Of a stretch of 64,000 bases of DNA, positions 27,320-49,046 are shown piece after piece. The translations under genes were made by a program, and so were the position numbers. The number at the start of each line of letters is the position of its first letter. Position 1 is the first letter of the stretch. The DNA is from an uncultured Bacteroidales bacterium (GTDB taxonomy: Bacteria; Bacteroidota; Bacteroidia; Bacteroidales; UBA11471), in contig CANQQA010000003.1 in the NCBI GenBank assembly GCA_947625885.1, positions 64,726-128,725 of the forward strand, in the 5' to 3' direction. The notes below the pieces were generated by a model. The model worked only from the letters and a program-made list of their open reading frames with translations, ran no database searches and was not told the DNA's origin.

Positions 27320-27327
27320 TTTTTTGA

Positions 27328-29131: not shown

Positions 29132-29154
29132 GTAAAACAAAAAAAGTCAAAACA

Positions 29155-29721: not shown

Positions 29722-29741
29722 CCCATAAAAAATAAACCAAT

Positions 29742-30845: not shown

Positions 30846-30850
30846 TATTT

Positions 30851-30887
30851 GACCTTTGGGGCAATTGCTGCGCCCCAAAGGTCTTTT
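30851..30887 (+). terminator. Rho-independent terminator after the major capsid gene
   Basis: gacctttggggc (30851-30862) pairs with gccccaaaggtc (30872-30883) and is followed by tttt. Confidence 0.7.
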
Positions 30888-30902
30888 GCAAGACAATATG
30901 TT

Positions 30903-31217: not shown

Positions 31218-31219
31218 TT

Positions 31220-32417: not shown

Positions 32418-32433
32418 TTTTAATTTATATAGT

Positions 32434-32934: not shown

Positions 32935-32953
32935 TCGGGGTGCATTAACGTAA

Positions 32954-32988
32954 GAAGCCCCCGGAATGTTTCAGTTTTCGGGGGCTTC
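32954..32988 (+). terminator. Hairpin terminator/attenuator after the major tail gene
   Basis: gaagcccccg (32954-32963) pairs with cgggggcttc (32979-32988). Confidence 0.6.
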
Positions 32989-33009
32989 AATTATTTAATA
33001 TCAACTGGT

Positions 33010-33579
33010 ATGGACGACGATAAGAAGAAACTTGAACAAGAACGTGCGGAGCTTAACACATTGATTGGTAAGGGTGTGTCATTTGAGGTAAAAGACACCG
33101 AATTTGATGTGGAACGGCGGTTCTTTGGAATTGTTAAGAAATACAAGCCACGTGAGGTAACAAGAACATTCAAAATTGAAGAAATGACGCTTGCCACACT
33201 TGACCGTATTTCAGTAGAAACAATCGAATTTGCAATTGATGAAAAGGCAATGAAATCGGCAGATTCAATGCAACGTGCAAGAAGTCTTGCCCGTGAACAT
33301 TCCATTCGTTGTGCAAGGGTTGTTGCTATCGCAGTTCTTGGTGAAGATAGATTGGTTCCTATTCACGGTAAAGGGGTAACAAGGTGGGTTGAAGATACAA
33401 AACGGCTTGACGAATTAACGGCATTGTTCGCAAGAAAAATAAAACCATCGGTACTATACAAACTTTACGTCATTGTGAATGCAATGAGCAATTTGGGGGA
33501 TTTTATGAACTCTATTCGATTGATGCAACAAGAAAGAACCACAATGCCGATTCGGATAGAGAAAACCAACAAGGATTAA
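33010..33579 (+). CDS. Tail assembly chaperone (G-like)
   Basis: 189 aa, immediately upstream of the tape measure gene. An overlapping -1-frame extension is present. Confidence 0.6.
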   Translation: MDDDKKKLEQERAELNTLIGKGVSFEVKDTEFDVERRFFGIVKKYKPREVTRTFKIEEMTLATLDRISVETIEFAIDEKAMKSADSMQRARSLAREHSIRCARVVAIAVLGEDRLVPIHGKGVTRWVEDTKRLDELTALFARKIKPSVLYKLYVIVNAMSNLGDFMNSIRLMQQERTTMPIRIEKTNKD

Positions 33580-33782
33580 ACAGTCCTTATGGTCGTCGAG
33601 GGGCTATATGTCAGCACTTCGGGTGGACTTATGATTACTTGTTACATGGCATTACGTGGTCGGTTGTTCAACGTATGATGATTGATGCCCCAAGTTATGA
33701 TTTAGACAATGGGGTTGAAGAAATCAAATTAACAGAGAACAACGGGGAACAAATATTGAATTACGTAAACAGTATGATGTAA
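33411..33782 (+). other. ATG-less -1-frame extension of the chaperone gene (GT-like programmed frameshift product)
   Basis: The -1 frame relative to 33010..33579 is open from 33411 to a TAA at 33780-33782, one nt before the tape measure ATG. The 33580-33782 gap is otherwise non-coding. An A-rich run gaaaaataaaac lies at 33434-33445. Confidence 0.5.
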
Positions 33783-33783
33783 T

Positions 33784-36700
33784 ATGGCAGAAATTAACGG
33801 CGGTTCTTTGTCATTCAAGTCCGAAATGGACAACAACCAATTGAATGCGGCGATTGACGAAACATTGCGACGTGTTCAAGGCTTTTCCGATGCTGTTGTT
33901 GGAAGTGGCGACGTGATGGATAACACAACGCAAGAAATGATTGCCCAAGTTCGTTCGGCGCTTGCGAAGATTGGTGATGCTTGCGATGAACACGAACAAG
34001 CACTTGACCGTTTGGGGCAAGAATATGACCGTTTGGGGCAAGAAATGGGTCGTGCCTTTGCAAGTGGGCGTGATGATGAATTTCGTGCATTACAGGAAAG
34101 AAGAAACGCCATACAAGGCGAAATAACGGTTCGCAAGCAATTATTAAACGAATTACACGAGCAATCCAACGTGCTTGAAAGTGAAGCTGCCAAGTTGGAA
34201 GAATCGGCAAGGCAAGCGGAAGAAGCGGCAAACAAGCACGTTTCGTTGCGTAGTAGAATCAAAGAGCTACGCGAAGAAATGGCATTGTATCGCGAAGCGT
34301 ATGGCGACCAGACAGAAGATTACAAAAAGATGGCTGCCGAATTGGGGCGTTTGCAAGATATTCAAGGGGACATTCAAGCGCAAGGAAAGATTTTTGCAAA
34401 TGATGAAGCCCAATTTCAAGGTATTATCACTGGATTAAGTGGCGTCGCAGGCGGATTTACGGCAGCACAAGGGGCGATGGCATTGTTTACGGGCGAAAAC
34501 GAAAATCTGCAAAAGGTGATGTTGAAAGTTCAATCCTTGATGTCTATAACAATGGGGTTGCAGCAAACCGCCCAAGCCCTAAACAAGGATTCGGCTTTTC
34601 GACTTGTAACACTTAACCGACTTAAAGAGTGGTGGAACAAACTTTTGGCTGTCGGCCGTGGCGAACAAATTGCGGCAACCGCCGCAACCGTTGCCGGAAC
34701 AACGGCAAATATAGGTCTTGCCGGGGCTTTTCGTATGGTTGGGGCAGCAATAAAATCAATCCCTGTTTTTGGTTGGGTTCTTACTGGAATTTCGGCTCTT
34801 ATTGCCCTTGTTACCCATTTTGTTAGCAAGGCGCGAGAAGCCAAAAAGGCGCAAGAAGAATGGTATAAATCCATTGCAGAAAATTCCTACAAACCAATTG
34901 CAAAGATTGAAGAATTGTCATTAAAGTGGAACGCACTTAGTGATGATTTTGAAGCAAAGAGAAAGTTCATTGAGCAAAACAAGAAAGCATTTGACGAATT
35001 GGGTGTTTCAATCAATGGGGTTACAGATGCAGAAAATATACTTAACAAAAACAAAGGCGCATTCATTCAGGCACAAATAGATAAGGCAAAAGCAATGCTT
35101 CTTGTTCAACAAGCCCAAGACAAAGTGAAAACCTTGATGGAAAAGGAACAAGAATATAATGCGATGCCGGATAAGGTTAGAGAAAGTGTAATGGTGGGCA
35201 TATCACCGGGTAATGAAGCTCCCGTTTATGAACAAGTTTGGGTTGTGAACAAAGCCAAGGAAGAAGTCGGAAAGAGCATTAAAGCATTGCGCGACGAAAT
35301 CACGCAAGGTTTTGAAGATGCGTCAATAGCCGAATCCGCAGGATTCAACGCATTAAAACAAGCCGGAATTGAAGCAACAGAAACTTATGCCGACGGAACA
35401 CTTGGGGCAATCGAACAAGCCATTCAAAGGGAACAAGCAACATTAAAGTCCATTACCAATAACGCCGATTATGAAGATGCCTTGAAAAGAATTTCGGACT
35501 TGCAGAAACAAGCCGAAGCAATCACGGGAAAAGGGACTACGGGTAGCAATGTGGGCGACAAAAAAGACCTGTTCTTGGAAAAATTGAACGCCAGAAAAGC
35601 CGAATACCAACGATTCGCAAAGTGGTTAAATTCGGGTGATGCGATATTGGTTCAATCGGCGAACAAGGAATTTGAGGGTCTTTTGAAAGAGGGTTCGACA
35701 TATATTGATTATTTGAAGAATCAACGCGACCAAATCTTATCCATTGATGTTGCCAACCGTACCAAGGCGCAAAATAAACAGTTGCGACAACTCAACGATG
35801 CTATTGCCGAAGAAACCAAACAAACGGTTTTGGAAGCGTTCAACACCGAGTTGAACGAACAATTGACCAATGCCAAAACGACCCTTGAAATGCTAAAAAT
35901 AATTGAGCAAAAGCGCAAGGAGTTGGCGAATGACGGAACGGAGTTGGACACGGCAAAAGGCAAGACCCTTGATGATGCAGAGAAAAATGCCAAAGAACAA
36001 TTGGTTGAAGAAACCCAAGAACTGTTGGAGAATTATGCTTCATACGCCAAGCAAAAGGGGCTTATAGATGAAGCATACAACCGAGATTATGAAGCGTTGA
36101 TGGCGAGGCGAAAGCAAACAACAGACGAAGCGGCGAAAGCCGAAATTGATGCAGCCATTGCCAACAGAAAGAAGAAACGTGATGATGATGTGAACAATAT
36201 TGGTGGTGTTGATTACAATGCCTTATTGTCCGAGTATGGCACGTTTGAGCAACGCAAGCAAGCAATTATCGACGAATACGAAGAAAAGCGAAAGGCGGCA
36301 CAAGCGGTTGGCAACGCAGAAATGGTGGAAGCCCTGAACAAAGCACAAGCCGAAGCCCTTTCAAAATTTGCGCTTGATGAATTGCAAGCACACCCTGACT
36401 GGGAATTGATGTTTGGCGACCTTGACGAAATAAGCACGCGAAAACTTCAAGAATTGATTGATAAAATCAACGGTCTTGATGGCGTATATCTTGGCATCGA
36501 ATTTGACCCAAAAGACCTTGAAGTTTTGAAAGACAAAGTCGAGGCAATGAAAAGCGAAATAAAAGAACGCAACCCGTTCAAATCGCTTGTTTCTTCGATT
36601 AAGGATTACGGTAAAGCGGCAAACGATGAAAGCAAGAAAAAGGCTTTGACCAATATGTTTGAAAGTGCAAGCGGTGCAATCGACCTTATCGGTGGGACAC

Positions 36701-37788
36701 TTGACGCAGTAACAAACGGGTTGGAGAAGATGGGCGTTACAATGGACGACGAAACCAAAGCAATAATGGGTGATATTGGCGGAATACTTGACGGCGCAAG
36801 TCAAATCGCAAGTGGTATTGCAACGGGAAATCCTTTGTCCATCATTCAAGGTTCGATAGGGTTGCTTACGTCTGCATTCGACCTTTTCAACACGAAAGAC
36901 AGACAGGCGGAAAGGCAAATAAAGAAGCATCAAGAAGCCATCGCGAAACTTGAAAAAGAATACACGCAATTGTCGTGGGCTATTGACAAAGCGCTTGGCG
37001 GCGATGTATATAAGAACCAACAATCCGCCATTCGCAACATGAAAGAGCAACAAGAACATTTGCGAGAATCTTGGAATGCCGAAATTTCAAAGAAAAAGAC
37101 CGATTGGGATAAAGTGGACGATTTCAAAGAACAATATGCTGAATTGGAGCGCCAAATTACAGATATGTACGATGAAATTTCTAACGACCTTTTACAGGTA
37201 ACGGCAAAAGACTTTGCCACTCAATTGTCTGATAGCTTAACAACGGCATTTAAGTCGGGCGAAGATTCGGCAAAGGCATTTGAAGATACGGTAAATGCGG
37301 TATTGCAAAACGTTGTCGTGAACCAATTGAAGAAGAAGTTTTTGGAACAACAACTTCAAGGCGCACTTGACCAATTAGAGGGTGCGATGGGTTATTGGAA
37401 TGGCGATGATTTTGTTTTCACCGGATTGACAGACGCGGAAATTGCATCGTTCAAGGCAAGGGTTCAAACAGCCGCCAACAACTACGAACAAGCATTAAGC
37501 GTTTATTCGGACTTGTTCAAGGATATGAACATTGAAGAATCTGATGATTCATTGACGGGGGCAGTCAAGGGTGTTTCAGAGGAAACCGCAAGCATTGTTG
37601 CCGGGCAAATGAATGCAATCCGCATCAATCAACTTGAAGCAACCAACATTTTACGACAACAGTTGCAGACGTTGAACGCAATTGCCACAAATACGTCATA
37701 CAACCGATATTTGGCAAGGATTGAAAGAATTATTACAATACTTGAAACCTATTCTGGCGATTCTTTAAGGTCAAAGGGTTTATCGTAG
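33784..37788 (+). CDS. Tail tape measure protein
   Basis: 1334 aa, coiled-coil rich, with a hydrophobic central segment (AATAATVAGTTANIGLAGAFRMVGAAIKSIPVFGWVLTGISALIALV). Confidence 0.9.
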   Translation: MAEINGGSLSFKSEMDNNQLNAAIDETLRRVQGFSDAVVGSGDVMDNTTQEMIAQVRSALAKIGDACDEHEQALDRLGQEYDRLGQEMGRAFASGRDDEFRALQERRNAIQGEITVRKQLLNELHEQSNVLESEAAKLEESARQAEEAANKHVSLRSRIKELREEMALYREAYGDQTEDYKKMAAELGRLQDIQGDIQAQGKIFANDEAQFQGIITGLSGVAGGFTAAQGAMALFTGENENLQKVMLKVQSLMSITMGLQQTAQALNKDSAFRLVTLNRLKEWWNKLLAVGRGEQIAATAATVAGTTANIGLAGAFRMVGAAIKSIPVFGWVLTGISALIALVTHFVSKAREAKKAQEEWYKSIAENSYKPIAKIEELSLKWNALSDDFEAKRKFIEQNKKAFDELGVSINGVTDAENILNKNKGAFIQAQIDKAKAMLLVQQAQDKVKTLMEKEQEYNAMPDKVRESVMVGISPGNEAPVYEQVWVVNKAKEEVGKSIKALRDEITQGFEDASIAESAGFNALKQAGIEATETYADGTLGAIEQAIQREQATLKSITNNADYEDALKRISDLQKQAEAITGKGTTGSNVGDKKDLFLEKLNARKAEYQRFAKWLNSGDAILVQSANKEFEGLLKEGSTYIDYLKNQRDQILSIDVANRTKAQNKQLRQLNDAIAEETKQTVLEAFNTELNEQLTNAKTTLEMLKIIEQKRKELANDGTELDTAKGKTLDDAEKNAKEQLVEETQELLENYASYAKQKGLIDEAYNRDYEALMARRKQTTDEAAKAEIDAAIANRKKKRDDDVNNIGGVDYNALLSEYGTFEQRKQAIIDEYEEKRKAAQAVGNAEMVEALNKAQAEALSKFALDELQAHPDWELMFGDLDEISTRKLQELIDKINGLDGVYLGIEFDPKDLEVLKDKVEAMKSEIKERNPFKSLVSSIKDYGKAANDESKKKALTNMFESASGAIDLIGGTLDAVTNGLEKMGVTMDDETKAIMGDIGGILDGASQIASGIATGNPLSIIQGSIGLLTSAFDLFNTKDRQAERQIKKHQEAIAKLEKEYTQLSWAIDKALGGDVYKNQQSAIRNMKEQQEHLRESWNAEISKKKTDWDKVDDFKEQYAELERQITDMYDEISNDLLQVTAKDFATQLSDSLTTAFKSGEDSAKAFEDTVNAVLQNVVVNQLKKKFLEQQLQGALDQLEGAMGYWNGDDFVFTGLTDAEIASFKARVQTAANNYEQALSVYSDLFKDMNIEESDDSLTGAVKGVSEETASIVAGQMNAIRINQLEATNILRQQLQTLNAIATNTSYNRYLARIERIITILETYSGDSLRSKGLS

Positions 37789-37793
37789 CAAAA

Positions 37794-37811
37794 TGTGTTT
37801 CACTATAAAAC
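37794..37811 (+). promoter_or_regulatory. Recurrent phage motif copy (tgtgtttcactataaaac)
   Basis: Lies between the tape measure stop and the next gene, ending 6 nt before the ATG at 37818. Confidence 0.55.
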
Positions 37812-37817
37812 GGAAAT

Positions 37818-38327
37818 ATGAAACTATCGAAAGAACTTGCAAGACAGGCAAAAGTCAAGGGTATTTGCGCCCCTTGGCACGCCCAATTGCTAAAATTACA
37901 AGACAAAGAAGCAATGGTCGATATGTACTTGAAAGGTATTGACTTTTGCTTGGCGAATGATTATCCGTCAAACGACTTCATAAGGGAGCATTTCAAAGGA
38001 GTTATGGAAGCGCAAGGGGTTTTCCTCGACGACAATATAAAAGTCGAAAATAAGCCAAAATGTGTGTGTTTGGGGGCAACAACTGGGCGCATTGATGTGA
38101 ACGGGTTTGAAGTGTGCGAGGTTTTCGCCAAGCACAATGCCGAAGTGAACGTGATTGCAAAGGACAATGCGTTTGTGATGATAGATATTTTTGATGATGC
38201 CATTGTGGCTGTTCACGCAAGCGACCGTGCAAAAGTTTGTGTAAACCATTATGGTGGGTCTATAACAAGAAATACAATGGGTGATGCCATTGTGAAGATA
38301 CGAGAAAAGAACAAAAAAACTTATTGA
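37818..38327 (+). CDS. Hypothetical tail-region protein
   Basis: 169 aa. No motif recognised. Confidence 0.45.
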   Translation: MKLSKELARQAKVKGICAPWHAQLLKLQDKEAMVDMYLKGIDFCLANDYPSNDFIREHFKGVMEAQGVFLDDNIKVENKPKCVCLGATTGRIDVNGFEVCEVFAKHNAEVNVIAKDNAFVMIDIFDDAIVAVHASDRAKVCVNHYGGSITRNTMGDAIVKIREKNKKTY

Positions 38328-38328
38328 T

Positions 38329-39534
38329 ATGAATGCAAATAATATAATTTTTCAAATGCCTTTTGATGAAAGCGACGGTTCGACTGTTGCTTTCGATTAC
38401 AGCCAAAACCGCGCAGATGGCGCAATTGTAGGTGCAAAGTTTGTCGCTGGAAAGAACGGTAATGCTATTTCATTTGGCGGTTCGGACACGTGTACGGTTT
38501 CAAAGACGGTATTATCAAATATGAACGTCGAATTTTCAATGACAATGTGGGTTCAAGGTCGGGAAATTGAATGCGGTTCGCCACAAAAGATGATTTGGGT
38601 TCTCAACTTTTCAGGTCTAAACAATTATGTCGAAGTCCCAATTGAAATGACGCCCGGTACATGGTATTATTTGGCAATAACAAGACGTGGGACGGCATAC
38701 AATTTTTACGTAAATACATCATTGGTAAAACAGTTGTCTTTGTCCGGTACTTTGCTTGGAATTTCTGTATGTCAAGACTATTACGGCGGCGAATATGGAT
38801 TTGGGTTACTCGACGATGTAAAGATTTACAATATTGCATTGTCGCAATCGGAGCTTATCAACGAATTAACGTCAAGCAAGCAACAAGCATATTTGTTGGA
38901 CGGTGTAGACTTCAAACAATATGGCGTGTTTGTATCTGGTTCGGACGGTATTATGAATCGACCGAAGTTGAAAGCACCCACCACATTGAATTGGGATAAT
39001 TATCACGGTGAAAGTGTAGACTTGGCGCATAAGTTTTATGAAGCACGGGAAATCACGTTGTCTTGCTTTATAAAAGCTGATTCAAAGATGGATTTCATCA
39101 AGAAGATAACCACGTTTGAACAACAGTTCGACAAAGTAGGGACAAATAGACTTGTGATTGACGTTCACCCGGTGAAACCATTGATTTATGAAGTCTATTG
39201 CAAAGATGCGATAGAAATTTCAAAAGAATGGAATGACAAACTGATGGTTGGAACATTCAAATTAAAATTGGTTGAGCCGGAACCCGTAAAGAAAGTATTG
39301 AAGCACATTCGGGTTAGTGATGCGACAAAGAGGTGTTCAATTACATTAACAAGTGCCAAGTATTTGAACATTTATTGGGGTGATGGTAACGTCGATTACG
39401 ATGTAAGCGGTGAAAACCGTACAATTACACATGATTATGATGTAAACGGTGATTATTTCCCCGTGATAACGGGCTGCATTGATGAAATTTCTTTATTTAC
39501 TACAAACGCAATTGTGGTATGGGAGCAAATCTAA
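38329..39534 (+). CDS. LamG/concanavalin-like domain fused to a distal-tail-protein-position domain
   Basis: N-terminal NGNAISFGG...WYYLAITRRGTAYNFYVN...DDVKIYNIALSQSEL is a LamG-type pattern. The C-terminal half occupies the Dit position after the tape measure. Confidence 0.55.
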   Translation: MNANNIIFQMPFDESDGSTVAFDYSQNRADGAIVGAKFVAGKNGNAISFGGSDTCTVSKTVLSNMNVEFSMTMWVQGREIECGSPQKMIWVLNFSGLNNYVEVPIEMTPGTWYYLAITRRGTAYNFYVNTSLVKQLSLSGTLLGISVCQDYYGGEYGFGLLDDVKIYNIALSQSELINELTSSKQQAYLLDGVDFKQYGVFVSGSDGIMNRPKLKAPTTLNWDNYHGESVDLAHKFYEAREITLSCFIKADSKMDFIKKITTFEQQFDKVGTNRLVIDVHPVKPLIYEVYCKDAIEISKEWNDKLMVGTFKLKLVEPEPVKKVLKHIRVSDATKRCSITLTSAKYLNIYWGDGNVDYDVSGENRTITHDYDVNGDYFPVITGCIDEISLFTTNAIVVWEQI

Positions 39535-42500
39535 CAAATATTATTATTACGCAACCAAACGGGAACCGTGTGCCTATGCAAAATAGGCGCACGGCAACCA
39601 TGGTTGTGTCTGCAAAGCAGAATCGGGCATTGAATGCAGAAGATACGGTGGACATTACCGTTGAATCGTCTTTTCCGCAAACATATAACATTGGCGATAA
39701 AATCACCGTGTTTGGAAGCGATTATAAGTTGAACCGCTTGCCGGCTGTTAAGAAAACAGGAATGCACCAATTCCAATATACCTTGCAATTCGAGGGGGTG
39801 CAATATGACTTGTTCCGTGTAATATACGACTTGACTATTGACACGACAAACAACCAATTGCAAGATATACAAGGCGACAGCTTGACAGGGAATTTACGGC
39901 GATTTATGACCGTTCTTATTGCCAACGCAAACCGTGTTTTCCCAAACAAGTGGGCATTGGGCGTTTGCCCCGAAACAATTGGTGATAAGACATTGACATT
40001 CGGAGAATCGGACAATTGCTTATCGGTGCTTCAAAACCTTTGCGATAAATCCAATTTCAATGTTGAATTTGACATTGTGCAAAATGGCGGGGTTTACACC
40101 GTCAATCTTTATGAACGTGTCGGACAAACATTGCCTTTCTTGTTTGAATTTGGAAAAGGACGTGGATTGTATGAATTGCACCGTGAAAATGTTTCTTCAT
40201 CAAACATTGTTACACGGTTGAAAGTATATGGTTCTACCGAAAATATTACTTCAAAATATCGTGCCGACCGTCTTTGTTTACCGGGTAAGACAAAGGGACA
40301 ATCATATATTGAAAAGCCCGAAATGGTAGCCAAATATGGTATTTTTGAGAGCCGCAAAAACTTTGACGATATAAAGCCCACATTTACCGGGTCGATAGAA
40401 TCAAAGGTTGATGAATTTTCGTTCACCGATACCAAATTCCCATTCGACTTGAACGCAACAGATGCAAGCGGTGAAACACTGTATCTTATCAATGGTGTTG
40501 CAGCAAAGATTCATTTCAACACGGGTAATCTTGCCGGATATGATTTCGAGGTAAAAAGTTACGACCACGCAACGCATAAGTTCACGTTGTTAAAGACGAC
40601 CGACGACCGCGGCGATGTGTTCCCGTCCGAAAAATTTTCGGCATTTCAATTTGCGAAAGGTGATGAATATAAGGTTCTTGATATTGCCTATTCGCAAGAA
40701 ATAGAAGCACAGGCAGAGGCAAAATTAGAAGAAGCCGGAAATAAGTATTACGACCAAAATTGCCAACCAAAAGTGCAATACGGGTTGAGTGTAACCGAAG
40801 CACATTTGAAGAAGTTTTACGGAACAGATGATTCGGTAACAAACATCTTTGCGCCCGGTGATTTCTTGCACATTGTTGATGCAGACATTGATGTGGACAA
40901 AGCAATTCGCATTAAATCATTTTCGCGCAATATCCTTTCCCCATACGATTACACATTGACCATTTCGGACATTACAACCAACGCAACTATTACTAACCGT
41001 GTAATTTCCGAATTGTTGGAACTTGACAAAATTGCTACCATTAATAATTTGAAAGACCCAACACGCGCCCGCGCAAATTGGCGGTCAAGTCGCGAAGTTT
41101 TGAACATGGTCTTTGACCCAGATGGCGATTATTATACCGATAAGATAAAACCAAATTCCATTGACACATTGGCATTGGCTGTTGGGGCTAAATCCATGCA
41201 ATTCGGATTGACAAATACGGTGTTTCAACCGAATTTTCAAAGCAACGCCAATGTGGTGAAATGGAAAGGCGGCGTCTTGACGCATTACACCATAAACGAA
41301 GAAGCTGCGGTATCTTGGGTTATGGCAGACGGTCAAACCACGCTGAATAATAATGCCCCATATTATTTGTATGCTAAATGTGAAAGAAATGGGAATGCGG
41401 GTGCATTCATTTTTACAGAATCACAAATAAGGGTTGATAAAGACGCAAATTATTATCATTTCTTGGTTGGTACATTGTCAAGCATTGACCCAGAATTGGG
41501 AGCGCGCGCCCTCGCTTTGACGTATGGTTTTTCAATGATAAACGGGGGCTTCATCAAGACCGGGCGCATTGAATCGGCTGACGGGATAACATACTTTGAC
41601 TTGGCAAACGGCGAGATAGGCGGGAATATAAAGATAAAATCGGGCTCGGCAGGACTTCATAACTTTGACGAATGGGGCGTACTGAATGGGCAGATTGAAG
41701 CCATTGAGAAATCCGTTGATGATGTAGACAAGTCCGTTGATAGCTTGAACGAGTACGTGGACGGGGCTTTTGCCGACGGCATCATTACCGAAGTCGAGGC
41801 AAGGGCAATCGAAAAATACATCAACACGGTAAACAACACGAAAGCCGCCGTAGAGGCTACCTACAACAAGTTGTACGAAAACCCTTATTTGTCTGGGCAG
41901 GCAGTCAAAAACTCTCTTAGCGTTGCAAAAACCACTTTATCTACGGCTATTGAAAATCTCCTTAAAGCAATAAACACAGCTATTTCTGACGGAAAGACGA
42001 CTGTTGCAGAAAAGAATGATGTTGATAGCAAGTTTGCAACGTTCAATTCTGCGTTATCAATGTTCAATAACTACGTAGAACTTGCAAATAAAACCATTCA
42101 AGATGTCTTAAAAGGCTATTCAGATGATTGCTTTGCAGAGTTGGGCGTACTGAATGGGCAGATTGAAGCGCAAGTTTCAAGGGTTGATAATATACAGAAT
42201 ACGATAGATACGGCTGGTTGGATAACAACGGCAGACGGAAACAAGTTGTACGCCTCGAAGAACAATATAATATCATTTATCAACCAATCCGCTGAAAGTA
42301 TAACAATTAATGCGTCGAAGATAAATTTGAGCGGGGTCGTTTCGGTCAGTTCGTTTAACTCGGCGATAACAACATTTACAGCAGAACTTAACAAAAAAGT
42401 AAATTCGAGTTCTCTTGGGGATTGGGCATACAAGAGCGGATTAATTGAATCCGCCATGCTTGGCGAAACAATCATCGTCGGCGGCTTCCTAAATACCGAC

Positions 42501-42974
42501 TACATAAAGGTGAAGAGTATAGAAGCAGAGGGGGCTAAGATAGGCAGCTTTGTAGTCAATAAAGGACGGTTGGATTGGCGGGGCTACGGGTATCTGTTAA
42601 GCACACCCGGAACTTTGACGTTGGGAATGGCGGAAGAAAGTGATGCAATCGTTGAAACAAAGTTTAACGCAAGTATTGCGAAGTTCGGGGTTTCATCTAT
42701 CGGTACGGCACCCGGTGGAGCTTGCATATACGCATCGTCTAACACCTCGCAGAAAAAACCCGTAGCAAGTAATACCTATGCCGGATACTTCGACGGCGAT
42801 GTAGAAGTAAACGGCAATGTTTATTGCGAAACATTGCTGGCTAATGAAATAGGTACATCTTGGTCACTTGATGGAAACGGAACTTACACCTACAAGAAAG
42901 GGATAAATAAAACTATCCAACTTGTAGGAGGGCTTGCAATGCAATTTGCCAATGGCATACTAATATCTGCGTAA
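39519..42974 (+). CDS. Tail tip / host-specificity protein (Tal-like)
   Basis: 1151 aa in the position after Dit. Its coiled-coil C-terminal part contains a perfect 27-bp internal direct repeat. Confidence 0.65.
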   Translation: MGANLTNIIITQPNGNRVPMQNRRTATMVVSAKQNRALNAEDTVDITVESSFPQTYNIGDKITVFGSDYKLNRLPAVKKTGMHQFQYTLQFEGVQYDLFRVIYDLTIDTTNNQLQDIQGDSLTGNLRRFMTVLIANANRVFPNKWALGVCPETIGDKTLTFGESDNCLSVLQNLCDKSNFNVEFDIVQNGGVYTVNLYERVGQTLPFLFEFGKGRGLYELHRENVSSSNIVTRLKVYGSTENITSKYRADRLCLPGKTKGQSYIEKPEMVAKYGIFESRKNFDDIKPTFTGSIESKVDEFSFTDTKFPFDLNATDASGETLYLINGVAAKIHFNTGNLAGYDFEVKSYDHATHKFTLLKTTDDRGDVFPSEKFSAFQFAKGDEYKVLDIAYSQEIEAQAEAKLEEAGNKYYDQNCQPKVQYGLSVTEAHLKKFYGTDDSVTNIFAPGDFLHIVDADIDVDKAIRIKSFSRNILSPYDYTLTISDITTNATITNRVISELLELDKIATINNLKDPTRARANWRSSREVLNMVFDPDGDYYTDKIKPNSIDTLALAVGAKSMQFGLTNTVFQPNFQSNANVVKWKGGVLTHYTINEEAAVSWVMADGQTTLNNNAPYYLYAKCERNGNAGAFIFTESQIRVDKDANYYHFLVGTLSSIDPELGARALALTYGFSMINGGFIKTGRIESADGITYFDLANGEIGGNIKIKSGSAGLHNFDEWGVLNGQIEAIEKSVDDVDKSVDSLNEYVDGAFADGIITEVEARAIEKYINTVNNTKAAVEATYNKLYENPYLSGQAVKNSLSVAKTTLSTAIENLLKAINTAISDGKTTVAEKNDVDSKFATFNSALSMFNNYVELANKTIQDVLKGYSDDCFAELGVLNGQIEAQVSRVDNIQNTIDTAGWITTADGNKLYASKNNIISFINQSAESITINASKINLSGVVSVSSFNSAITTFTAELNKKVNSSSLGDWAYKSGLIESAMLGETIIVGGFLNTDYIKVKSIEAEGAKIGSFVVNKGRLDWRGYGYLLSTPGTLTLGMAEESDAIVETKFNASIAKFGVSSIGTAPGGACIYASSNTSQKKPVASNTYAGYFDGDVEVNGNVYCETLLANEIGTSWSLDGNGTYTYKKGINKTIQLVGGLAMQFANGILISA

Positions 42975-42999
42975 TAATCAACAAAAAAACAAAAGAGCT

Positions 43000-43287
43000 A
43001 TGAAAGTAGATTTTAACAAGAAATTCAAGGATTTCAAAGGACAGGAAACAAATGTGGTAATCGCGGACAAAGTGGCAGAGGCACTATATTCTGCCGGCGC
43101 GACGCCAGAGTGTGCAATCAAGAACGATAACAAGTTCCGAGCTTACAAGTTGTGCCAGAAGATAATCAACTCGGACGGGGCTATCGAAATCGAGAGCGAG
43201 GACGCCACGCTGATAAAGAGCGTATGCGCCAACTTCCTCACGGCGGGGGCTTACGGGCAGGTACACGAAATAATAGAGGGAGTATGA
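43000..43287 (+). CDS. Hypothetical protein
   Basis: 95-aa ORF. Confidence 0.45.
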   Translation: MKVDFNKKFKDFKGQETNVVIADKVAEALYSAGATPECAIKNDNKFRAYKLCQKIINSDGAIEIESEDATLIKSVCANFLTAGAYGQVHEIIEGV

Positions 43288-43390
43288 CGTCGGCATTCTC
43301 CACAACCCAATAAGTTATGATTGATTTATCAACAAATGGGTTATTATAACACACAACAAAGTAGTTTTGTGTAACTTATAAATATTGAAA

Positions 43391-43666
43391 ATGGGTACAA
43401 CAAGAAGTGGCGAACAAGTTTCCGCGCAAATTGGCAAGATTGGAGTTATTGACGGATTGAGCGATAAAAACTTTATGTTGAATGACGGTCAATGCTTCAA
43501 CATCAAGAATGATGGAACACAACCCGTTACACTATCGGTGCAGCTTGCCAGAATGAAAGATGGCGATTTCATCGAAACACAGTTTGAGTGTGGGTGGAAT
43601 CCCGAAATTGTTAAGGCAGTGAAACAAACTTCATTGTCGGGTATTAACTTAAAATGGGGCTATTGA
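43391..43666 (+). CDS. Hypothetical protein immediately upstream of DGR target 1
   Basis: The ATG at 43391 is preferred over the TTG at 43385. A TAgtTTTG box lies at 43362-43369 upstream. Confidence 0.45.
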   Translation: MGTTRSGEQVSAQIGKIGVIDGLSDKNFMLNDGQCFNIKNDGTQPVTLSVQLARMKDGDFIETQFECGWNPEIVKAVKQTSLSGINLKWGY

Positions 43667-43667
43667 T

Positions 43668-44966
43668 ATGGGCTTAATTATTGGAGTAGGTGGCGCAAAG
43701 CCAACCTTTGCTTATGATTATTATTACGGAATCGAATGGGATTCGACAGTTTCAAATCCAAAGCCAAGCAGAATTGGTAAAATGGAATTGCACAAAACCT
43801 TGCCCGTTCAATCGTTGATGCGCCGTTGCATCTTGGCAGATGATGGCACAGTGAAATACTATCTTCACGCAAACGATTCGACAAAGCGCGACAATGGCGC
43901 TGCGGCAAACCTTACGGGCGCAGATGGGCAATATATGGTCGAGATACCGGAAGTTTATGTGCGCTTTGAAACAGACGGAACAAAAAACCGTGCATTGATT
44001 TCGACAACTGAATTACCCGGATTCCATCTTTGGAAAAAGGATTATATTTCGGCGGTAGAAGCAACCGTTCAACGTTCAACAACAAAATTGGCTTCGGTAG
44101 TAAATAATAGTACAGATTATCGCGGCGGAAATAACGATGCAAACCGCGACGGGAAAAACACAACCCAGCTCGGTATGCCCGCCACGCAAATATCACTAAC
44201 AACATTCCGTGATTATGCGCGCAAACGCGGTGCAAAGTGGAATTGCAATGTGTACCAAACACACAGAAAAATGTGGTGGTTGTATGCTATTGAATATGCT
44301 AATTTCAATTGCCAAGATGCGTTTAATGCGGCATTGACCAATGACGGTTACAAGCAAGGCGGTTTGGGTAATGGTGTAACCACATGGGATTGGACACAGT
44401 GGTCAAACTTTAACGGTAACTACCCTTTTGTGCCTTGCGGTACAACGAACAGTCTTGGCAATCATTCTGGGGCAGTTGATTATACGATTAAAAATGCAGA
44501 GGGTGGAGATTTGAAAACATTTTCCGTACCCTCGTATAGGGGTGTTGAAAACCCATTTGGACACATTTGGAAGTGGACGGACGGTTGCAAATGTTTGATT
44601 CAGTCGGACGAAAATGGCGGGTTATCCGAGTTTTATGTTTGTGATAATCCGGCAAATTTCACAAGTTCCGGAACGACAAATTATCAACTCCGAGGCGTTT
44701 TGCCAAGAAAAGAAGGTTATGTCAAATCCATGGTTCTTGGCGAAGATGGCGATATTATGCCGCTTGAAATTGGTGCTGGTTCAACCACATACTTTTGCGA
44801 TTACTTTTATACAAGTATTCCCGCAAGTGGTGTAAGTGAACGTGGCGTGTTGTTCGGCGGTGATGCGGATAATGGTGCGTATGCGGGGTTCGTTTTTGCG
44901 TCTACGCATCTTGCGGCGTCGGATACGTATGCGAATGTCGGCTCTCGGCTTTGCTTTTTACCGTAA
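43668..44966 (+). CDS. DGR target protein 1 (tail fibre / receptor-binding candidate with C-terminal VR)
   Basis: 432 aa. Its last 39 full codons before ..LP-stop are VR1, ending NVGSRLCF as expected for a C-type-lectin-fold-like variable C-terminus. Confidence 0.85.
   Translation: MGLIIGVGGAKPTFAYDYYYGIEWDSTVSNPKPSRIGKMELHKTLPVQSLMRRCILADDGTVKYYLHANDSTKRDNGAAANLTGADGQYMVEIPEVYVRFETDGTKNRALISTTELPGFHLWKKDYISAVEATVQRSTTKLASVVNNSTDYRGGNNDANRDGKNTTQLGMPATQISLTTFRDYARKRGAKWNCNVYQTHRKMWWLYAIEYANFNCQDAFNAALTNDGYKQGGLGNGVTTWDWTQWSNFNGNYPFVPCGTTNSLGNHSGAVDYTIKNAEGGDLKTFSVPSYRGVENPFGHIWKWTDGCKCLIQSDENGGLSEFYVCDNPANFTSSGTTNYQLRGVLPRKEGYVKSMVLGEDGDIMPLEIGAGSTTYFCDYFYTSIPASGVSERGVLFGGDADNGAYAGFVFASTHLAASDTYANVGSRLCFLP
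44841..44956 (+). repeat. DGR variable repeat 1 (VR1)
   Basis: 116-bp gap-free match to the TR with 16 mismatches, all at TR adenines (hand alignment). Confidence 0.9.
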
Positions 44967-45049
44967 ATCGAAACGGCGTGAAACGCCAAATCGACAATAA
45001 GGGTGAATGATGAAAATTTGATGGTTGAATGAAAAAGGTTGTCCGATGT

Positions 45050-45165
45050 CGTGGCGTGTTGTTCAGCGGTAATGCGAATAATGGTGCGAATGCAGGGTTC
45101 GTTTATGCGAATACGAATAATGCGGCGTCGAATACGAATGCGAATATCGGCTCTCAGCTATGCTT
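45050..45165 (+). repeat. DGR template repeat (TR), non-coding
   Basis: Adenine-rich copy of VR1 and VR2, with ten AAT codons in the targets' reading frame. It lies 167 nt upstream of the RT gene. Confidence 0.9.
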
Positions 45166-45332
45166 GTAAAAATATAGTTGCATATCGGAAACCTTGCCAC
45201 AAAAACGACCCAATCGGGTTGAATGAGTTGGAAATATCCAACGGCAAAAAATAAAATGTGTAGAACGGTTTTGGTAGGGGAAGCACCCGAAAAATCCTAA
45301 TATACAAGCAAATTTGTGTTATGGCAATATAA

Positions 45333-46361
45333 ATGAAACGAATTGGCAATATATTTGACAAAGTGATTTCGCTTGAAAATTTACGCCTTGCAGACGAAAA
45401 GGCAAGGAAAGGAAAAACGAAGTCTTACGGTGTTATGTTTCACGATAAAAATCGCGAAGCCAATTTACTTGCTTTGCACGAAAGTTTGAAAAATGGAACA
45501 TTCAAAACATCGAAGTATCACATATTCACGATTTACGAGCCGAAAGAACGTCGTATTTATCGGTTGCCATATTACCCTGACCGCATATTGCATCACGCCA
45601 TAATGAATGTTCTTGAACCAATATGGGTTTCGGTATTTACAAAAGACACATATTCTTGCATAAAGAATCGGGGAATCCATAAGTGTGCAAGAAGCGTGAA
45701 ACAATCGTTGAAGCAAGACCCGGACGGAACGCGATATTGTCTGAAAATAGACATTCGCAAATTTTACCCGTCAATCAACCATGAAATTTTGAAAAAGGTT
45801 GTGCGAAGAAAAATAAAAGATGAACGCCTTTTTGCGCTGCTTAACGAAATCATTGATTCGGTTGATGGTGTGCCAATTGGAAATTATCTTTCGCAATATT
45901 TTGCCAACCTTTTCTTGGCATATTTCGACCACTGGTTGAAAGAAAAAAAACGTGTAAAGTATTACTGGCGTTATGCCGACGATATTGTTATTCTTGCACC
46001 AAATAAGGACTTTTTGCACGAATTGTTGCACGAAATTCGTGCTTATTTGCGAAACAACCTGAAATTGGCTGTCAAGCGTAATTACCAAGTCTTTCCCGTA
46101 GATTCACGGGGAATTGATTTCTTGGGATATGTCTTTTATCATTCCCACACCCTTTTGCGAAAATCAATCAAACAAAAACTTTGTCGCCGGGTGGCAAGGT
46201 TGAATAAACGAAAGATTGGCGCAACAAAAGAATACTACAAACAACAAATTTGTAGTTGGTGGGGGTGGTGCAAGTATTGTGATTCTACCAATTTAATAAA
46301 CAAACTTTCAAAAACATTTCCGTATGAAATTAAATTCAATCGAAGCAAATGCGCATTATGA
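45333..46361 (+). CDS. DGR-type reverse transcriptase
   Basis: 342 aa with IGNYLSQYF (the DGR-typical [I/L]GxxxSQ motif) and RYADDIVIL (YADD catalytic box). It is adjacent to the TR. Confidence 0.9.
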   Translation: MKRIGNIFDKVISLENLRLADEKARKGKTKSYGVMFHDKNREANLLALHESLKNGTFKTSKYHIFTIYEPKERRIYRLPYYPDRILHHAIMNVLEPIWVSVFTKDTYSCIKNRGIHKCARSVKQSLKQDPDGTRYCLKIDIRKFYPSINHEILKKVVRRKIKDERLFALLNEIIDSVDGVPIGNYLSQYFANLFLAYFDHWLKEKKRVKYYWRYADDIVILAPNKDFLHELLHEIRAYLRNNLKLAVKRNYQVFPVDSRGIDFLGYVFYHSHTLLRKSIKQKLCRRVARLNKRKIGATKEYYKQQICSWWGWCKYCDSTNLINKLSKTFPYEIKFNRSKCAL

Positions 46362-46362
46362 C

Positions 46363-46710
46363 ATGGCGCACGGGAAGCCCGAAATTTTGGAAAAAGATAA
46401 TGACGGTTCTTATTTGTACCGTTTCAACATCGAACCAGAAATGGGCATTCCTTATGGTGGTGAAAAAGAAGTTCAAATCGGTTGGAAATGCTACGAGGTA
46501 CGCACATTCAACAAGCCGACAAAATCGAACTTGAAAAAAGTCATCATACGTTCAGTACTTGACGAAACGGCAGAATTTGACCTTGTAAATTCGTACAACA
46601 AACACATCTTGGGCGTTGTCGTTGATAAAAATGCGGTTGCAGCATACAAGGAATATTTGCAATTTACCGAGGATTTGGACGGGTTATTGGTAAACACATT
46701 GTCGAACTAA
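46363..46710 (+). CDS. Hypothetical protein downstream of the RT
   Basis: The ATG at 46363 lies 1 nt after the RT stop codon (TGA 46359-46361). The track start at 46324 overlaps the RT. It is not obviously Avd-like. Confidence 0.45.
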   Translation: MAHGKPEILEKDNDGSYLYRFNIEPEMGIPYGGEKEVQIGWKCYEVRTFNKPTKSNLKKVIIRSVLDETAEFDLVNSYNKHILGVVVDKNAVAAYKEYLQFTEDLDGLLVNTLSN

Positions 46711-46723
46711 AATCAACCAAACC

Positions 46724-47140
46724 ATGGCAAAGTTTTGTGAACTTGGCGTTGAATCGGACGTGATTATTGGCAAGGGAATCGAGATTGAAGAATTGTTCGG
46801 TCGTCGAATCTTGATTGAAAAGACAATCATTCAGCCAACAAAATATCCGGGTAAGAATGCTTCGGGTTTGAGAATGCAAATGCAAGTTGTACTTGCAACA
46901 TTCAATGAATTGCCAGACAAATACGGTGATTATTATACAAAAAACCAAGATGGCGTACCGCTTGGCGAAAGACGCTCTTGTTTTACGGGTTCGGACATAT
47001 TGATTTCGGCGATTCAGAAAGCCGAAAGCAATTTACCTGTTATAAACAAGTCAAGAAGCGAAAATGGGTTGCCGTATTTGTCTTTATACCCGATGGACAC
47101 AACGATTGTCAAGGTTGGAAAATGCTTTCAATTTACTTAA
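46724..47140 (+). CDS. Hypothetical protein
   Basis: 138-aa ORF. Confidence 0.45.
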   Translation: MAKFCELGVESDVIIGKGIEIEELFGRRILIEKTIIQPTKYPGKNASGLRMQMQVVLATFNELPDKYGDYYTKNQDGVPLGERRSCFTGSDILISAIQKAESNLPVINKSRSENGLPYLSLYPMDTTIVKVGKCFQFT

Positions 47141-47141
47141 A

Positions 47142-47747
47142 ATGGAATATATACCAGCTATCATTACAGCAATCGGCGTTATTATCACAGCATGGTTTGC
47201 ATACAATCAAAAGACGAAAGACAAAATGACGGACTTGAAGATTGAGCAAATTCGCGCGGAAAATGCCGAAAAGAAGAAAAGGCGTGCCGATAATTCCGCA
47301 ATCGTACACGGGGAGTTGTGGGAAGCATTACACATATTACACGCCGACCGCGTTTATATAGTACAACCACACCCGCTCGGTAATGAATCAATGATAAGTG
47401 TTTATTTTGAATCTAAACGAAAGGGCGTGGAATCAATGAAACCAAAGATTCAACACCTTAAAATGTGTGAGTGTGCCACATTTTGTGCGGACATGGCGAA
47501 AAATCTTTATATGTTTTTTGACGACATTGATGCACAAGTAAAAGACAGGTATGCAAAATCGCTTCTTTCTGCGTGCGGAACAAGCAAGGTTGCCATCAAA
47601 CGATTAAGCGACAACACACACGATTGGGTTGGGTCTATCTTTTGCGAGTTCACACACGATGTTACGGTGAATGAAAGTGAAGTTCGCGCAACGCTTCACG
47701 ACGTGGCAATGAACATTCAATATCTTTTGCCGGAATATAGAGATTAA
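47142..47747 (+). CDS. N-terminally membrane-anchored protein (holin-position, atypically large)
   Basis: MEYIPAIITAIGVIITAWFAY is a TM helix, followed by a ~175-aa soluble domain. It lies directly upstream of the endolysin gene. Confidence 0.45.
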   Translation: MEYIPAIITAIGVIITAWFAYNQKTKDKMTDLKIEQIRAENAEKKKRRADNSAIVHGELWEALHILHADRVYIVQPHPLGNESMISVYFESKRKGVESMKPKIQHLKMCECATFCADMAKNLYMFFDDIDAQVKDRYAKSLLSACGTSKVAIKRLSDNTHDWVGSIFCEFTHDVTVNESEVRATLHDVAMNIQYLLPEYRD

Positions 47748-47750
47748 TTT

Positions 47751-48329
47751 ATGGCAAGCGTTGAAATTTTATTGCCGTTCATCTTGAAGTGGGAACGTGG
47801 TTTTGTAAACGACCCGGCAGACGCTGGTGGCGCGACGAATAAGGGCGTAACCATTGCAACTTGGCAAAATGTCGGTTATGACAAAGATGGCGACGGTGAT
47901 ATTGATGTGCTTGACTTGAAGTTGCTTTCAGATGCAGACGTGATGAATCGGGTTTTGAAGCCACATTATTGGAACCGCTGGAAAGCCGACCAGATACATT
48001 CACAAAATGTTGCAAACATCTTAGTTGATTGGGTGTGGTGTTCCGGCAAACACGGAATTGTCATTCCGCAAAGGGTGCTTGGTGTTGAGCCGGACGGAAT
48101 TGTCGGTAACAAAACGTTGTCGGCGGTGAACTTCGCAGACCCTTACAAATTGTTTGAAGCCCTATTCGATGCCCGAGTTGATTTCTTGAACGACATTACC
48201 AATGCAAGCATTGCTAAGTTTGAAAGGAAAATTGGACGCAAAGCGACAGAAAAAGAGTTGTTGGAATACACGAATAAACGCTTCTTGAAAGGTTGGTTGA
48301 ATCGCTTAAATTCGATTCGCACGCTATAA
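47751..48329 (+). CDS. Endolysin (GH108-type muramidase with PG_binding_3-like C-terminus)
   Basis: [24 protein letters not shown] is the GH108 signature, with [12 protein letters not shown] in the C-terminal part. An EF-hand/dockerin-like loop [12 protein letters not shown] is encoded at 47880-47915. Confidence 0.8.
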
Positions 48330-48344
48330 AATGATGATGAGAGT

Positions 48345-48884
48345 ATGAAAAAGATAATTATTATTGCAGCGCTGCTTTTATTGCTCGTGTCTTGCGGTGC
48401 GACCAAAAAGACAATGCAAACAAATGAAATGCACATTGATAGTTTGGCGGCTTCCAAGTCAATGAGCGAGCAAGTGGAAAAGATTGTGGACACAACACGA
48501 ACGGAGCATGGAAAAATTACTATCACCGAGATTGATTTTTTTCAATCGCCAATAATCGAGCCAAATGCCCGTGCCGATTTGACAAATTTTGGAAATGTTC
48601 AAGGGGTTGTAAAGTCCATAAGACAAACGGTGATTGAATCAAACGTTGAGGAAAAGGGAGAAAGCAACGAATCACGCGAAAGCAACGAATCCGATAATGT
48701 AGCAACCGTTACCAAGATAATGGAATGTACCGATAAACAGCAAGAACCCGCCAAAGACCCTTATCGTTGGCGGTACATATTTTTCATTTCCTTGTTTGCT
48801 GGCGGTGTGTTGTTGTATTTGAAAAGAATGCCCGTATGCAATTGGATAAAGAAAATACTTCAAGGATTCTTGAAGATTTTATAA
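48345..48884 (+). CDS. Candidate unimolecular spanin
   Basis: N-terminal lipoprotein signal MKKIIIIAALLLLLVSCG plus a C-terminal TM helix YIFFISLFAGGVLLYL. It is the gene directly after the endolysin. Confidence 0.55.
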   Translation: MKKIIIIAALLLLLVSCGATKKTMQTNEMHIDSLAASKSMSEQVEKIVDTTRTEHGKITITEIDFFQSPIIEPNARADLTNFGNVQGVVKSIRQTVIESNVEEKGESNESRESNESDNVATVTKIMECTDKQQEPAKDPYRWRYIFFISLFAGGVLLYLKRMPVCNWIKKILQGFLKIL

Positions 48885-48939
48885 ATTATTCCTATATTTG
48901 CTCCACATTGTTGCGAAAGCCTCGGTGCAACTCCGGGGT

Positions 48940-48980
48940 ACAATGTCGAATCCCGGCAAGAAGCCGGGATTCATTGTTTT
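48940..48980 (+). terminator. Hairpin terminator at the end of the lysis operon
   Basis: gaatcccggc (48948-48957) pairs with gccgggattc (48963-48972). The stem is extended by acaat/attgt and followed by ttt. Confidence 0.5.
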
Positions 48981-49025
48981 CAAATGGTAATAAAAAACGT
49001 CCAAAATCGTGTTGAATTTGGACGT

Positions 49026-49046
49026 TTCGTGTACGAAATCGTGTAC
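49026..49046. repeat. Right copy of the 21-bp direct repeat, candidate integrase arm-type sites
   Basis: Identical to 1533-1553. A third degenerate unit aatcgtgtt lies at 49005-49013. Confidence 0.5.

Follow-up and report, generated by a model that had tools for sequence, protein, structure and literature searches.

The 64,000-nt window analysed here (a stretch of contig CANQQA010000003.1 from an uncultured Bacteroidales bacterium) holds a reverse transcriptase (RT) gene beside two closely matching repeats, one of which lies at the 3' end of a phage tail gene, and it raises the question of whether these make up a working diversity-generating retroelement (DGR) and which proteins such an element would diversify. 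A first-pass annotation had proposed a phage-borne DGR in which a variable repeat (VR) differs from its template repeat (TR) at template adenines only. Our analysis supports this interpretation through the repeat anatomy, the type of RT and the variation at adenine sites between samples, and we place the probability that the locus is a functional DGR on a temperate siphovirus-like prophage of this bacterium at roughly 93%. The earlier reading was incomplete rather than wrong; it did not mention a second target, the lack of an Avd protein, a structured RNA in the spacer that separates the TR from the RT gene, or the fact that four of the mismatches are fixed.

Repeat anatomy and the reverse transcriptase

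The TR (45050..45165, + strand) is non-coding, has 28 adenines in its 116 nt and carries ten in-frame AAT codons. VR1 (44841..44956, +) matches it over all 116 nt without a gap. The two form a direct repeat, 209 nt apart, whose homology breaks off abruptly at both ends and which is the sole long repeat in that half of the window. VR1 lies at the 3' end of target gene 1 (43668..44966, +), where it spans codons 392-430 of a 432-aa open reading frame (ORF), and all 16 of its mismatches with the TR fall on a TR adenine (hypergeometric P 1.8e-12). A recount reproduced the coordinates, the ungapped alignment and the 16 adenine mismatches of the first-pass annotation, whose ten AAT codons, two quoted peptides and placement of VR1 in the last codons of the ORF were also correct. 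A 46-aa ORF over the TR (45029-45169), annotated as a gene in public sibling contigs, is the TR in the target's frame and probably spurious rather than a real gene.

A scan of the whole window with the TR, in which adenine and non-adenine mismatches were scored separately, revealed a second variable repeat. VR2 (9874..9948, +) is a 75-nt match to TR offsets 41-115 that lies 35 kb upstream of the TR, inside target gene 2, and 13 of its 13 mismatches fall on TR adenines (P 2e-10).

The product of target gene 1 is a tail-module protein (phrog_5302, 'tail protein', PHROG E 7.6e-131), and its gene sits downstream of the genes for the tape measure and for a 1151-aa tail protein. Sequence and profile searches with this protein returned no Pfam match and no PDB match, and no similarity to Mtd, the target of the BPP-1 DGR, was detectable. 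Its AlphaFold2 (AF2) model was unusable (predicted local distance difference test score, pLDDT, 29.6), the alignment being shallow (75-97% identity). Its VR peptide (RGVLFGG...GSRLCF) looks like one of the C-type lectin class of VRs.

The RT (45333..46361, +; RVT_1, E 3e-20) is a DGR-type enzyme of 342 aa with IGNYLSQ and YADD motifs whose ORF starts 167 nt past the TR, just as the first-pass annotation had described. RTs of DGRs are marked by [I/V/L]GxxxSQ instead of QGxxxSP (PMC7826257), and the window RT carries IGNYLSQ and is without QGxxxSP. In bRT, the RT of BPP-1, Arg74 and Ile181 promote adenine mutagenesis, Ile181 being the first residue of the [I/V/L]GxxxSQ signature (PMC7826257); the window residues aligned to both are conserved. 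The best PDB match was bRT itself (8ub7), with an E value of 2e-49 over residues 2-326, compared to about 1e-19 for group II intron RTs and about 1e-18 to 1e-19 for retron-type RTs in the same comparison. The nearest RTs among GenBank phages belong to crAss-like phages (57-61% identity).

We considered a retron, group II intron or defence-system origin of the RT (defence-associated RT, DRT, or abortive infection, Abi), in which case the repeat would be an unrelated duplication. The top NCBIfam E-value did go to a group II intron RT/maturase model, and several phage records label homologues 'retron-type'. However, the 122.9 bits reached with that model are far under its 300-bit cut-off, the group II, retron and DRT models all scored far under their own cut-offs, and the NCBIfam search gave no DGR RT model that could have competed. 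The BPP-1 DGR RT matched 30 orders of magnitude better than the group II and retron RTs, which supports the type of RT given in the first-pass annotation, and an Rfam scan of the window found neither a group II intron RNA nor a retron (msr/msd) RNA. A plain duplication would also not give 16 of 16 and 13 of 13 mismatches on the adenines of one copy. With the IGNYLSQ signature standing where QGxxxSP would be expected, an origin outside the DGR RTs is scarcely credible.

The same architecture recurs in phage genomes. IMG/VR holds at least 591 related RT loci, and among the 80 that were fetched (68-92% identity), about 55 share a layout of VR, a gap of about 90 nt, TR, a spacer of about 150-185 nt and RT, with mismatches almost all at TR adenines. 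In the window, the spacer between TR and RT contains a structured RNA (45190..45315, +) that resembles the Rfam motif RT-17 (RF03020), with helices at 45195-45198/45243-45246, 45207-45211/45216-45220, 45227-45231/45238-45242, 45267-45272/45292-45297 and 45277-45279/45286-45288. The full-model match of the window spacer reached 29.5 bits (E about 1e-3), which is under the gathering score of 40.4 because two hairpins (41 nt) are inserted in the first stem-loop; homologous spacers at two other loci attain the gathering score (L115, 44 bits; L091, 40.4 bits). In the fold of 37 spacers (RNAalifold), 14 of 22 pairs had compensatory changes and 97.7% of the spacer cells were paired compared to 83.9% in shuffled alignments, a value that 0 of 500 shuffles reached. 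On each measure of covariation, the observed value was above those of the 500 shuffles and of every slid control. In the DGR clade found here, RT-17 appears to take the place that the RT-10 spacer RNA has in BPP-1, and by analogy the spacer RNA would be expected to bind the RT and supply the priming site. The locus links an orphan Rfam motif to the TR-RT spacer of a DGR clade.

Variation among sibling contigs and the ends of the repeats

Is the element active? A megablast of positions 43600-46800 against GenBank phages found no match, and an exact scan for the TR pattern (each A replaced by N) found none in GTDB species representatives or IMG/VR; the close sibling contigs were obtained solely via exact-protein look-ups. 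Such look-ups returned no record for the 151-aa and 180-aa ORFs, probably as a result of different start-codon calls, and for the portal protein a 4-kb contig only. At least 24 public contigs encode the RT protein with 100% identity. We fetched nine RT-sibling contigs, and the comparison is one of assemblies from different samples. Among the contigs with an identical RT there are at least six VR1 alleles, which differ at 12-17 TR-adenine sites and at 0-2 non-adenine sites. VR1 is different in every lineage while the TR is constant or one base off, being identical in L001, L003 and L009 and having one change (A15G) in L002 and L004. The rest of the sibling contigs (3-12 kb each) shows 3-113 single-nucleotide polymorphisms (SNPs), mostly in host DNA. 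In L006, 17 differences in the 116-nt VR1 compare to 3 in the approximately 4.7 kb outside VR1 and an aberrant TR copy. Given that the RT is identical, that VR1 carries 12-17 differences and that flank SNPs are few, many adenine-specific changes must be recent.

The protein sequences tell the same. Target 1 is represented by 7 protein sequences with six distinct VR alleles and 0-2 substitutions outside the VR. VR2 in L010 and L011 has 10-12 TR-adenine differences within 9888-9929, compared to 1 site elsewhere in the gene, and variation among the target 2 protein alleles P0002-P0006 is confined to the VR save for one residue in P0006. In this between-sample comparison of identical-RT contigs, VR variation falls almost solely on TR-adenine sites, in agreement with the first-pass annotation. 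Neither of the two outcomes that the annotation had named as refuting it, an RT closer to group II intron or retron RTs and VR variation that is absent or spread over non-adenine sites, was observed. As judged from these alignments, the element is active, given that at least six VR1 alleles accompany an identical RT, differ at adenine sites and sit beside a near-constant TR and near-constant flanks.

An alternative is that the DGR has decayed, so that the TR/VR pattern is a fossil and the alleles seen in the samples are old lineages. This could draw on the nature of the data, which are between-sample assemblies and not within-population reads, and on the lack of an Avd protein, as well as on irregular TR copies. 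In L005 (2935-2944), 56 nt of the TR are missing (window 45081-45136), and the TR of L006 (L006:897-1012) has 7 substitutions. Each of these 7 is also present in the VR1 of L006, and coverage there is about 3x; for both reasons we set this copy aside as a probable chimera in which the assembly joined TR and VR reads. L007 and L008 start within the TR, at 45132, as contigs typically do where an assembly breaks at a repeat. Inactivity is nevertheless very unlikely, given the intact RT ORF with its catalytic motifs, which is 100% identical in at least 24 contigs, the 12-17 VR1 differences against few flank SNPs (and the same for VR2), and the family-wide conservation of TR, spacer RNA and hairpin with compensatory changes.

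Homologous recombination or gene conversion among related phages could also vary a tail gene. Tail-fibre tips are classic hot spots for such mosaicism, and the alleles do come from different samples. The changes, however, are single-base changes at TR-adenine sites only, they involve all three alternative bases, and the interleaved non-adenine sites are identical; moreover, an unrelated protein encoded 35 kb away varies at these sites too. Mosaicism is therefore an extremely unlikely source of the VR variation, and a DGR at work on two genes remains the reading that we adopt.

Not all of the mismatches reflect this process. Substitutions at TR offsets 15, 44, 106 and 110 (TR 45065, 45094, 45156 and 45160; VR1 44856, 44885, 44947 and 44951; VR2 9877, 9939 and 9943) are shared by essentially all alleles of the family. 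These four are fixed TR/VR differences and not outcomes of random mutagenesis. The first-pass statement that the mismatches are adenine-only holds for all 16, but four of them are family-wide fixed differences and about 12 lie at hypervariable sites. The three CAG-context adenines of the TR (offsets 15, 44 and 106) read G in 149 of 150 VR allele-sites, in lineages whose RTs have only 68-92% identity to that of the window. One sibling allele has T at offset 15 (Cys). The adenine in CTA (offset 110) reads T in 48 of 48, and the CAG site at the 3' end reads G in 48 of 48 (57 distinct VR1 alleles). TR adenines in AAT, GAA, TAA, TAT and TAC contexts, by comparison, keep A in about 23-72% of alleles and are otherwise replaced by other bases, which agrees with the mutational density of about 50% reported for other DGRs.

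Two of the four fixed changes are synonymous (GCA/GCG at offset 44 and CTA/CTT at the 3'-end site), and protein-level selection therefore cannot explain them. Offsets 15 and 106 lie at the limits of VR1, and offset 44 lies at the 5' limit of VR2 but inside VR1, with variable sites on both sides. A boundary effect thus suits offsets 15 and 106 in VR1 and offset 44 in VR2, but not offset 44 in VR1. CAG (TR)/CGG (VR) pairs also border the mutable core in the distant small-target cassettes described below. A context bias of the RT was considered as the cause of the CAG-to-CGG change and rejected, since an average misincorporation of about 30% should often keep A and G was observed in 149 of 150. 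Published data on bRT have C as the base most often misincorporated overall, put average misincorporation at about 30% and show context effects that do not predict complete conversion (PMC12875486). The prophage also encodes a C-5 cytosine DNA methylase (13322-14386; PF00145, E 1e-45); a link of CpG-type methylation or T:G repair to the fixed CAG/CGG pairs is speculation only.

The 3' ends of the repeats differ in a fixed manner as well. Both VRs end in CGGCTTTGCTT, compared to CAGCTATGCTT in the TR, and in every lineage the VR ends in ...TCTCGGCTTTGCTT and the TR in ...TCTCAGCTATGCTT or in a variant that also differs at non-adenine bases. By analogy, these differences resemble those between the initiation of mutagenic homing site (IMH) and IMH* in BPP-1, where cDNA information passes only upstream of the 3' boundary (PMC3240598); a comparable boundary effect has been described in Bacteroides DGRs (bioRxiv 10.1101/2024.11.15.621889).

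The first-pass annotation had also pointed to a hairpin (GGCGT-GAA-ACGCC; 44975..44987, +) after VR1 that has no counterpart after the TR. The sequence is present there, flanked by AAATCGA repeats (44968-44994), and the counterpart is indeed lacking, but the hairpin in isolation is no more stable than shuffled sequence (z = -1.27), and it is the relatives that lend it support. Within 50 nt after VR1, 23 of 40 distinct relative sequences have a GC-rich stem (4-6 bp) closed by a GAA, GTAA, GTA or ATA loop, with nine different stem sequences that covary, compared to 3 of 40 after the TR. In BPP-1, a hairpin or cruciform with 7-10-bp GC stems and GRNA loops, 4-34 bp from the VR, is needed for target recognition (PMC3240598); the hairpin found here resembles it but is shorter.

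We propose that an RNA containing the TR and the structured spacer (about 45190-45315) would be copied to cDNA by the RT, which would misincorporate opposite template adenines, and that this cDNA would replace the homologous stretch in VR1 of the tail gene and in VR2 of the gene for the 204-aa protein. Transfer would run from TR to VR only, with the recipients marked by their fixed 3' ends and VR1 also by the GAA-loop hairpin downstream. The cDNA intermediate, self-priming by the spacer and the mode of cDNA integration are taken over from the BPP-1 model. From the ten AAT codons together with TAT, two ACG and ATC, the repertoire would come to about 1e14 VR1 peptides and about 3e9 VR2 peptides.

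A second target among early phage genes

Target gene 2 (9413..10027, +) encodes a 204-aa protein of phrog_11581, a family with no function assigned by PHROG. The gene belongs to the recombination/replication module of the prophage, where it lies between the gene for a metallo-beta-lactamase (MBL)-fold hydrolase and the genes leading to the replication initiator; genes for SbcC-like, RecT-like and DnaC-like loader proteins are further neighbours. VR2 makes up codons 155-179 of 204 and is followed by 26 residues, so this VR falls short of the C-terminus. The common part of targets 1 and 2 is the 33-residue VR segment only (hhalign). The phrog_11581 family is large, with 3940 clusters when grouped at 90% identity and 1082 when grouped at 50%, and alignments of target 2 proteins show a hypervariable patch of 13-17 residues in a near-invariant remainder.

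The AF2 model of target 2, built on 114 diverse sequences, has a pLDDT of 93.9. It starts with a small alpha/beta domain at the N-terminus, continues in long helices and bears the VR on a beta-hairpin and loop, after which come two C-terminal helices. With this model, Foldseek matched nothing in the PDB at E below 0.6; sequence and profile searches of the PDB gave nothing meaningful, and BFVD returned two matches at E <=0.001, both uncharacterised phage proteins. No signal peptide was visible by eye at the N-terminus.

The MBL-fold hydrolase encoded upstream of target 2 (8651-9403) has a weak precomputed match to the anti-Pycsar Apyc1 family (PF23023), and our own Pfam scan gave generic Lactamase_B families only. 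This hydrolase may be a nuclease partner of the RecT-like protein.

Both targets appear to be maintained together in related phages. In six phage contigs that contain both loci, VR1 and VR2 each track the TR of their own phage, including lineage-specific non-adenine differences, and therefore dual targeting is conserved and the VRs are kept in step. Nine distant IMG/VR contigs (L115-L129) extend this picture: in them, two tandem phrog_11581 paralogues are directly followed by a TR and an RT, the latter with 54-63% identity to the RT of the window. Both paralogues carry VRs, and differences from the TR are mainly on adenines. One such cassette (L115:2303-4604) consists of two tandem phrog_11581 targets, the TR, an RT-17 RNA, the RT and an ORF of about 98 aa. 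No tail-gene target was found in the approximately 2.5-kb flanks examined. The L115 cassette is flanked by an exonuclease and a single-stranded DNA-binding protein (SSB) on one side and by a replication initiator/DnaD-like loader on the other, and in L123 the order is RecT-like protein, MBL hydrolase, cassette. Given that phrog_11581 members are the sole targets in distant cassettes set among DNA-metabolism genes, genomic context argues that this family is a recurrent, dedicated DGR target among early DNA-metabolism genes.

In the literature that we searched, no paper describing the phrog_11581 family was found, an absence that is no proof. According to large surveys, most viral targets are tail proteins, and remote targets escape the survey pipelines (PMC8144416). 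The 204-aa protein might, as one possibility, be a hypervariable binder directed at variable defence or nuclease proteins of the host, which it would neutralise, an idea suggested by the position of its gene, which sits where lambda-type phages keep Gam-like inhibitors.

Prophage setting, accessory genes and known systems

The first-pass annotation called the element phage-borne, and this was borne out. The DGR is carried by a prophage (1533..49046, +) of about 47.5 kb that stands out in the GC profile, with about 41% GC against about 55% for the host; its ends are approximate. Terminase, portal, major head, tape measure and lysin genes were all found, with a tyrosine integrase (1562-2839, minus strand) at the left prophage end. 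The gene order runs from regulators through a recombination/replication module (SbcC-like, RecT-like, MBL hydrolase, replication initiator, DnaC-like loader, C5 methylase, exonuclease and SSB), packaging and head genes and the tail module to the DGR and the lysin (47751-48329). The tail module includes the tape measure (33784-37788) and the 1151-aa tail protein (39519-42974). Within the latter gene, a 39-nt direct repeat (41663-41701/42131-42169; 90% identical, 468 nt apart) suggests internal duplication of a coiled-coil segment.

Beyond the right end lies a tRNA-Ser gene (49081-49169, minus strand). A 21-nt direct repeat, TTCGTGTACGAAATCGTGTAC, found at 1533-1553 and at 49026-49046, about 35 nt beyond the tRNA, is a candidate attachment (att) core. 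A second, different flanking repeat, a 14-mer at 1402-1415 and 49080-49093, copies the 3' end of tRNA-Ser and is also a candidate att core. For the ClpB of the host, identity to GTDB species representatives does not exceed 82%, and the top match is an uncultured 'Porphyromonadaceae' gut metagenome-assembled genome, which makes the host an uncultured Bacteroidales species.

Several observations weigh against a functional DGR. The evidence of activity comes from between-sample assemblies, neither from within-population reads nor from an experiment, and the aberrant TR of L006 could reflect VR-to-TR conversion in place of a chimera. There is no convincing hairpin after VR2; a weak possible one (GCG-GAA-CGC; 9956..9964, +) was read from the sequence and is unsupported by folding, and among six relatives a weak 3-bp candidate was found in one and none in five. 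The 14-bp block of G and C only that is a feature of the BPP-1 IMH is not present here. A C-type lectin fold was not demonstrable for target 1 or 2 by AF2 or PDB searches. Finally, searches for Avd and other known accessory proteins were negative, with no PF05635 in about 48 prophage ORFs (Pfam) and no match of a BPP-1 Avd query to six-frame ORFs. Avd is required for cDNA synthesis in BPP-1, and therefore the mechanism here is not simply that of BPP-1. The absence of Avd leaves the assignment as a DGR intact and sets the element apart from the BPP-1 type; 26% of surveyed DGRs are without avd, one lineage entirely so (PMC5758913).

Two genes after the RT were considered for an accessory role. 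The 138-aa orf138 (46724..47140, +; isoelectric point, pI, 7.6) is present at 79 of 80 related loci and is homologous over its full length to the ORF of about 98 aa directly after the RT in 8 distant cassettes (hhalign probability 97.8%, E 8.6e-13). It is a candidate accessory gene because it is linked to the RT in two genomic contexts, and this linkage suggests that it may take the accessory role in this Avd-less clade. The acidic 128-aa orf128 (46324..46710, +; pI 5.2, phrog_11557) overlaps the 3' end of the RT by 38 nt, is present at 76 of 80 related loci and is homologous to an ORF that overlaps the RT 3' end in the crAss-like phage cr55_1 (E 1e-7). As an accessory gene it was downgraded to a weak candidate, since about 2.7 kb separate its homologue from the RT in cr50_1. 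An identity of either downstream ORF with the CH1 protein of Wu et al. was also considered and rejected, the size and pI of CH1 suiting neither orf128 nor orf138.

The element and the BPP-1 DGR (mtd-avd-TR-brt) have RTs that are homologous over their full length; in both, TR and VR differ specifically at adenines, and a tail-module gene carries a VR at its 3' end. It differs in that avd lies between mtd and the TR there and is absent here; the codons are AAC there and AAT here, and target 1 is without similarity to Mtd. The hairpins of phage DGRs have 7-10 bp and 4-nt GRNA loops, compared to 5 bp and a 3-nt GAA loop here, and BPP-1 has a (G/C)14 block and an RT-10 spacer where this element has no block, an RT-17 spacer and a second target. 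The phage cr55_1 (Crassvirales, Suoliviridae) has the same succession of a phrog_5302 tail protein, an RT and a phrog_11557 ORF overlapping the RT end, but on a crAss-like backbone of about 98 kb and not a 47-kb temperate prophage, the likeness being one of gene layout. Layout also relates the element to the Avd-less DGRs of architecture A ('Lineage 3', Wu et al. 2018, PMC5758913), which have target, TR and RT without avd, HRDC, MSL or CH1 in Bacteroidales hosts; the CH1 described there is acidic, with 160-169 aa and a pI of 4.7, unlike the 128 aa (pI 5.2) and 138 aa (pI 7.6) products found here. Non-adjacent second targets in the same prophage are reported to be common in that survey (PMC5758913). 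Both the Avd-less architecture and the remote second target are thus already documented variations of DGRs (PMC5758913).

One TR serving an adjacent and a distant target is likewise known from two-target phages, namely the 'Bacuni' phages of Bacteroides uniformis (PMC8143477), tentaclin phages (PMC10743442) and Toutatisvirus (bioRxiv 10.1101/2024.10.15.618418). There, the adjacent and the distant target have both been described as receptor-binding or surface proteins of C-type lectin or adhesin-like type, and Avd has been reported in Bacuni and Toutatisvirus. The distant target in the window, by contrast, is small, shows no signal peptide by eye, is encoded by a gene of the replication module and has a model without a match to a known fold.

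A DGR in a prophage of gut Bacteroidales is in itself ordinary, given that these elements are abundant and that diversification of tail proteins is well understood; here, changes in the tail protein would likely alter tropism. What deserves attention is the second target together with its family, with one Avd-less DGR serving both a tail protein and a small protein of the early module. A bolder reading, which we offer tentatively and consider rather unlikely, is that this DGR diversifies an intracellular early protein and not a receptor-binding protein, and that the ORF of about 98-138 aa after the RT is a new factor that replaces Avd. The split between hypervariable adenines and CAG adenines that always read G bears on how the limits of retrohoming are set. 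If the 204-aa protein is indeed intracellular, targeted hypermutation by phages would reach beyond host recognition.

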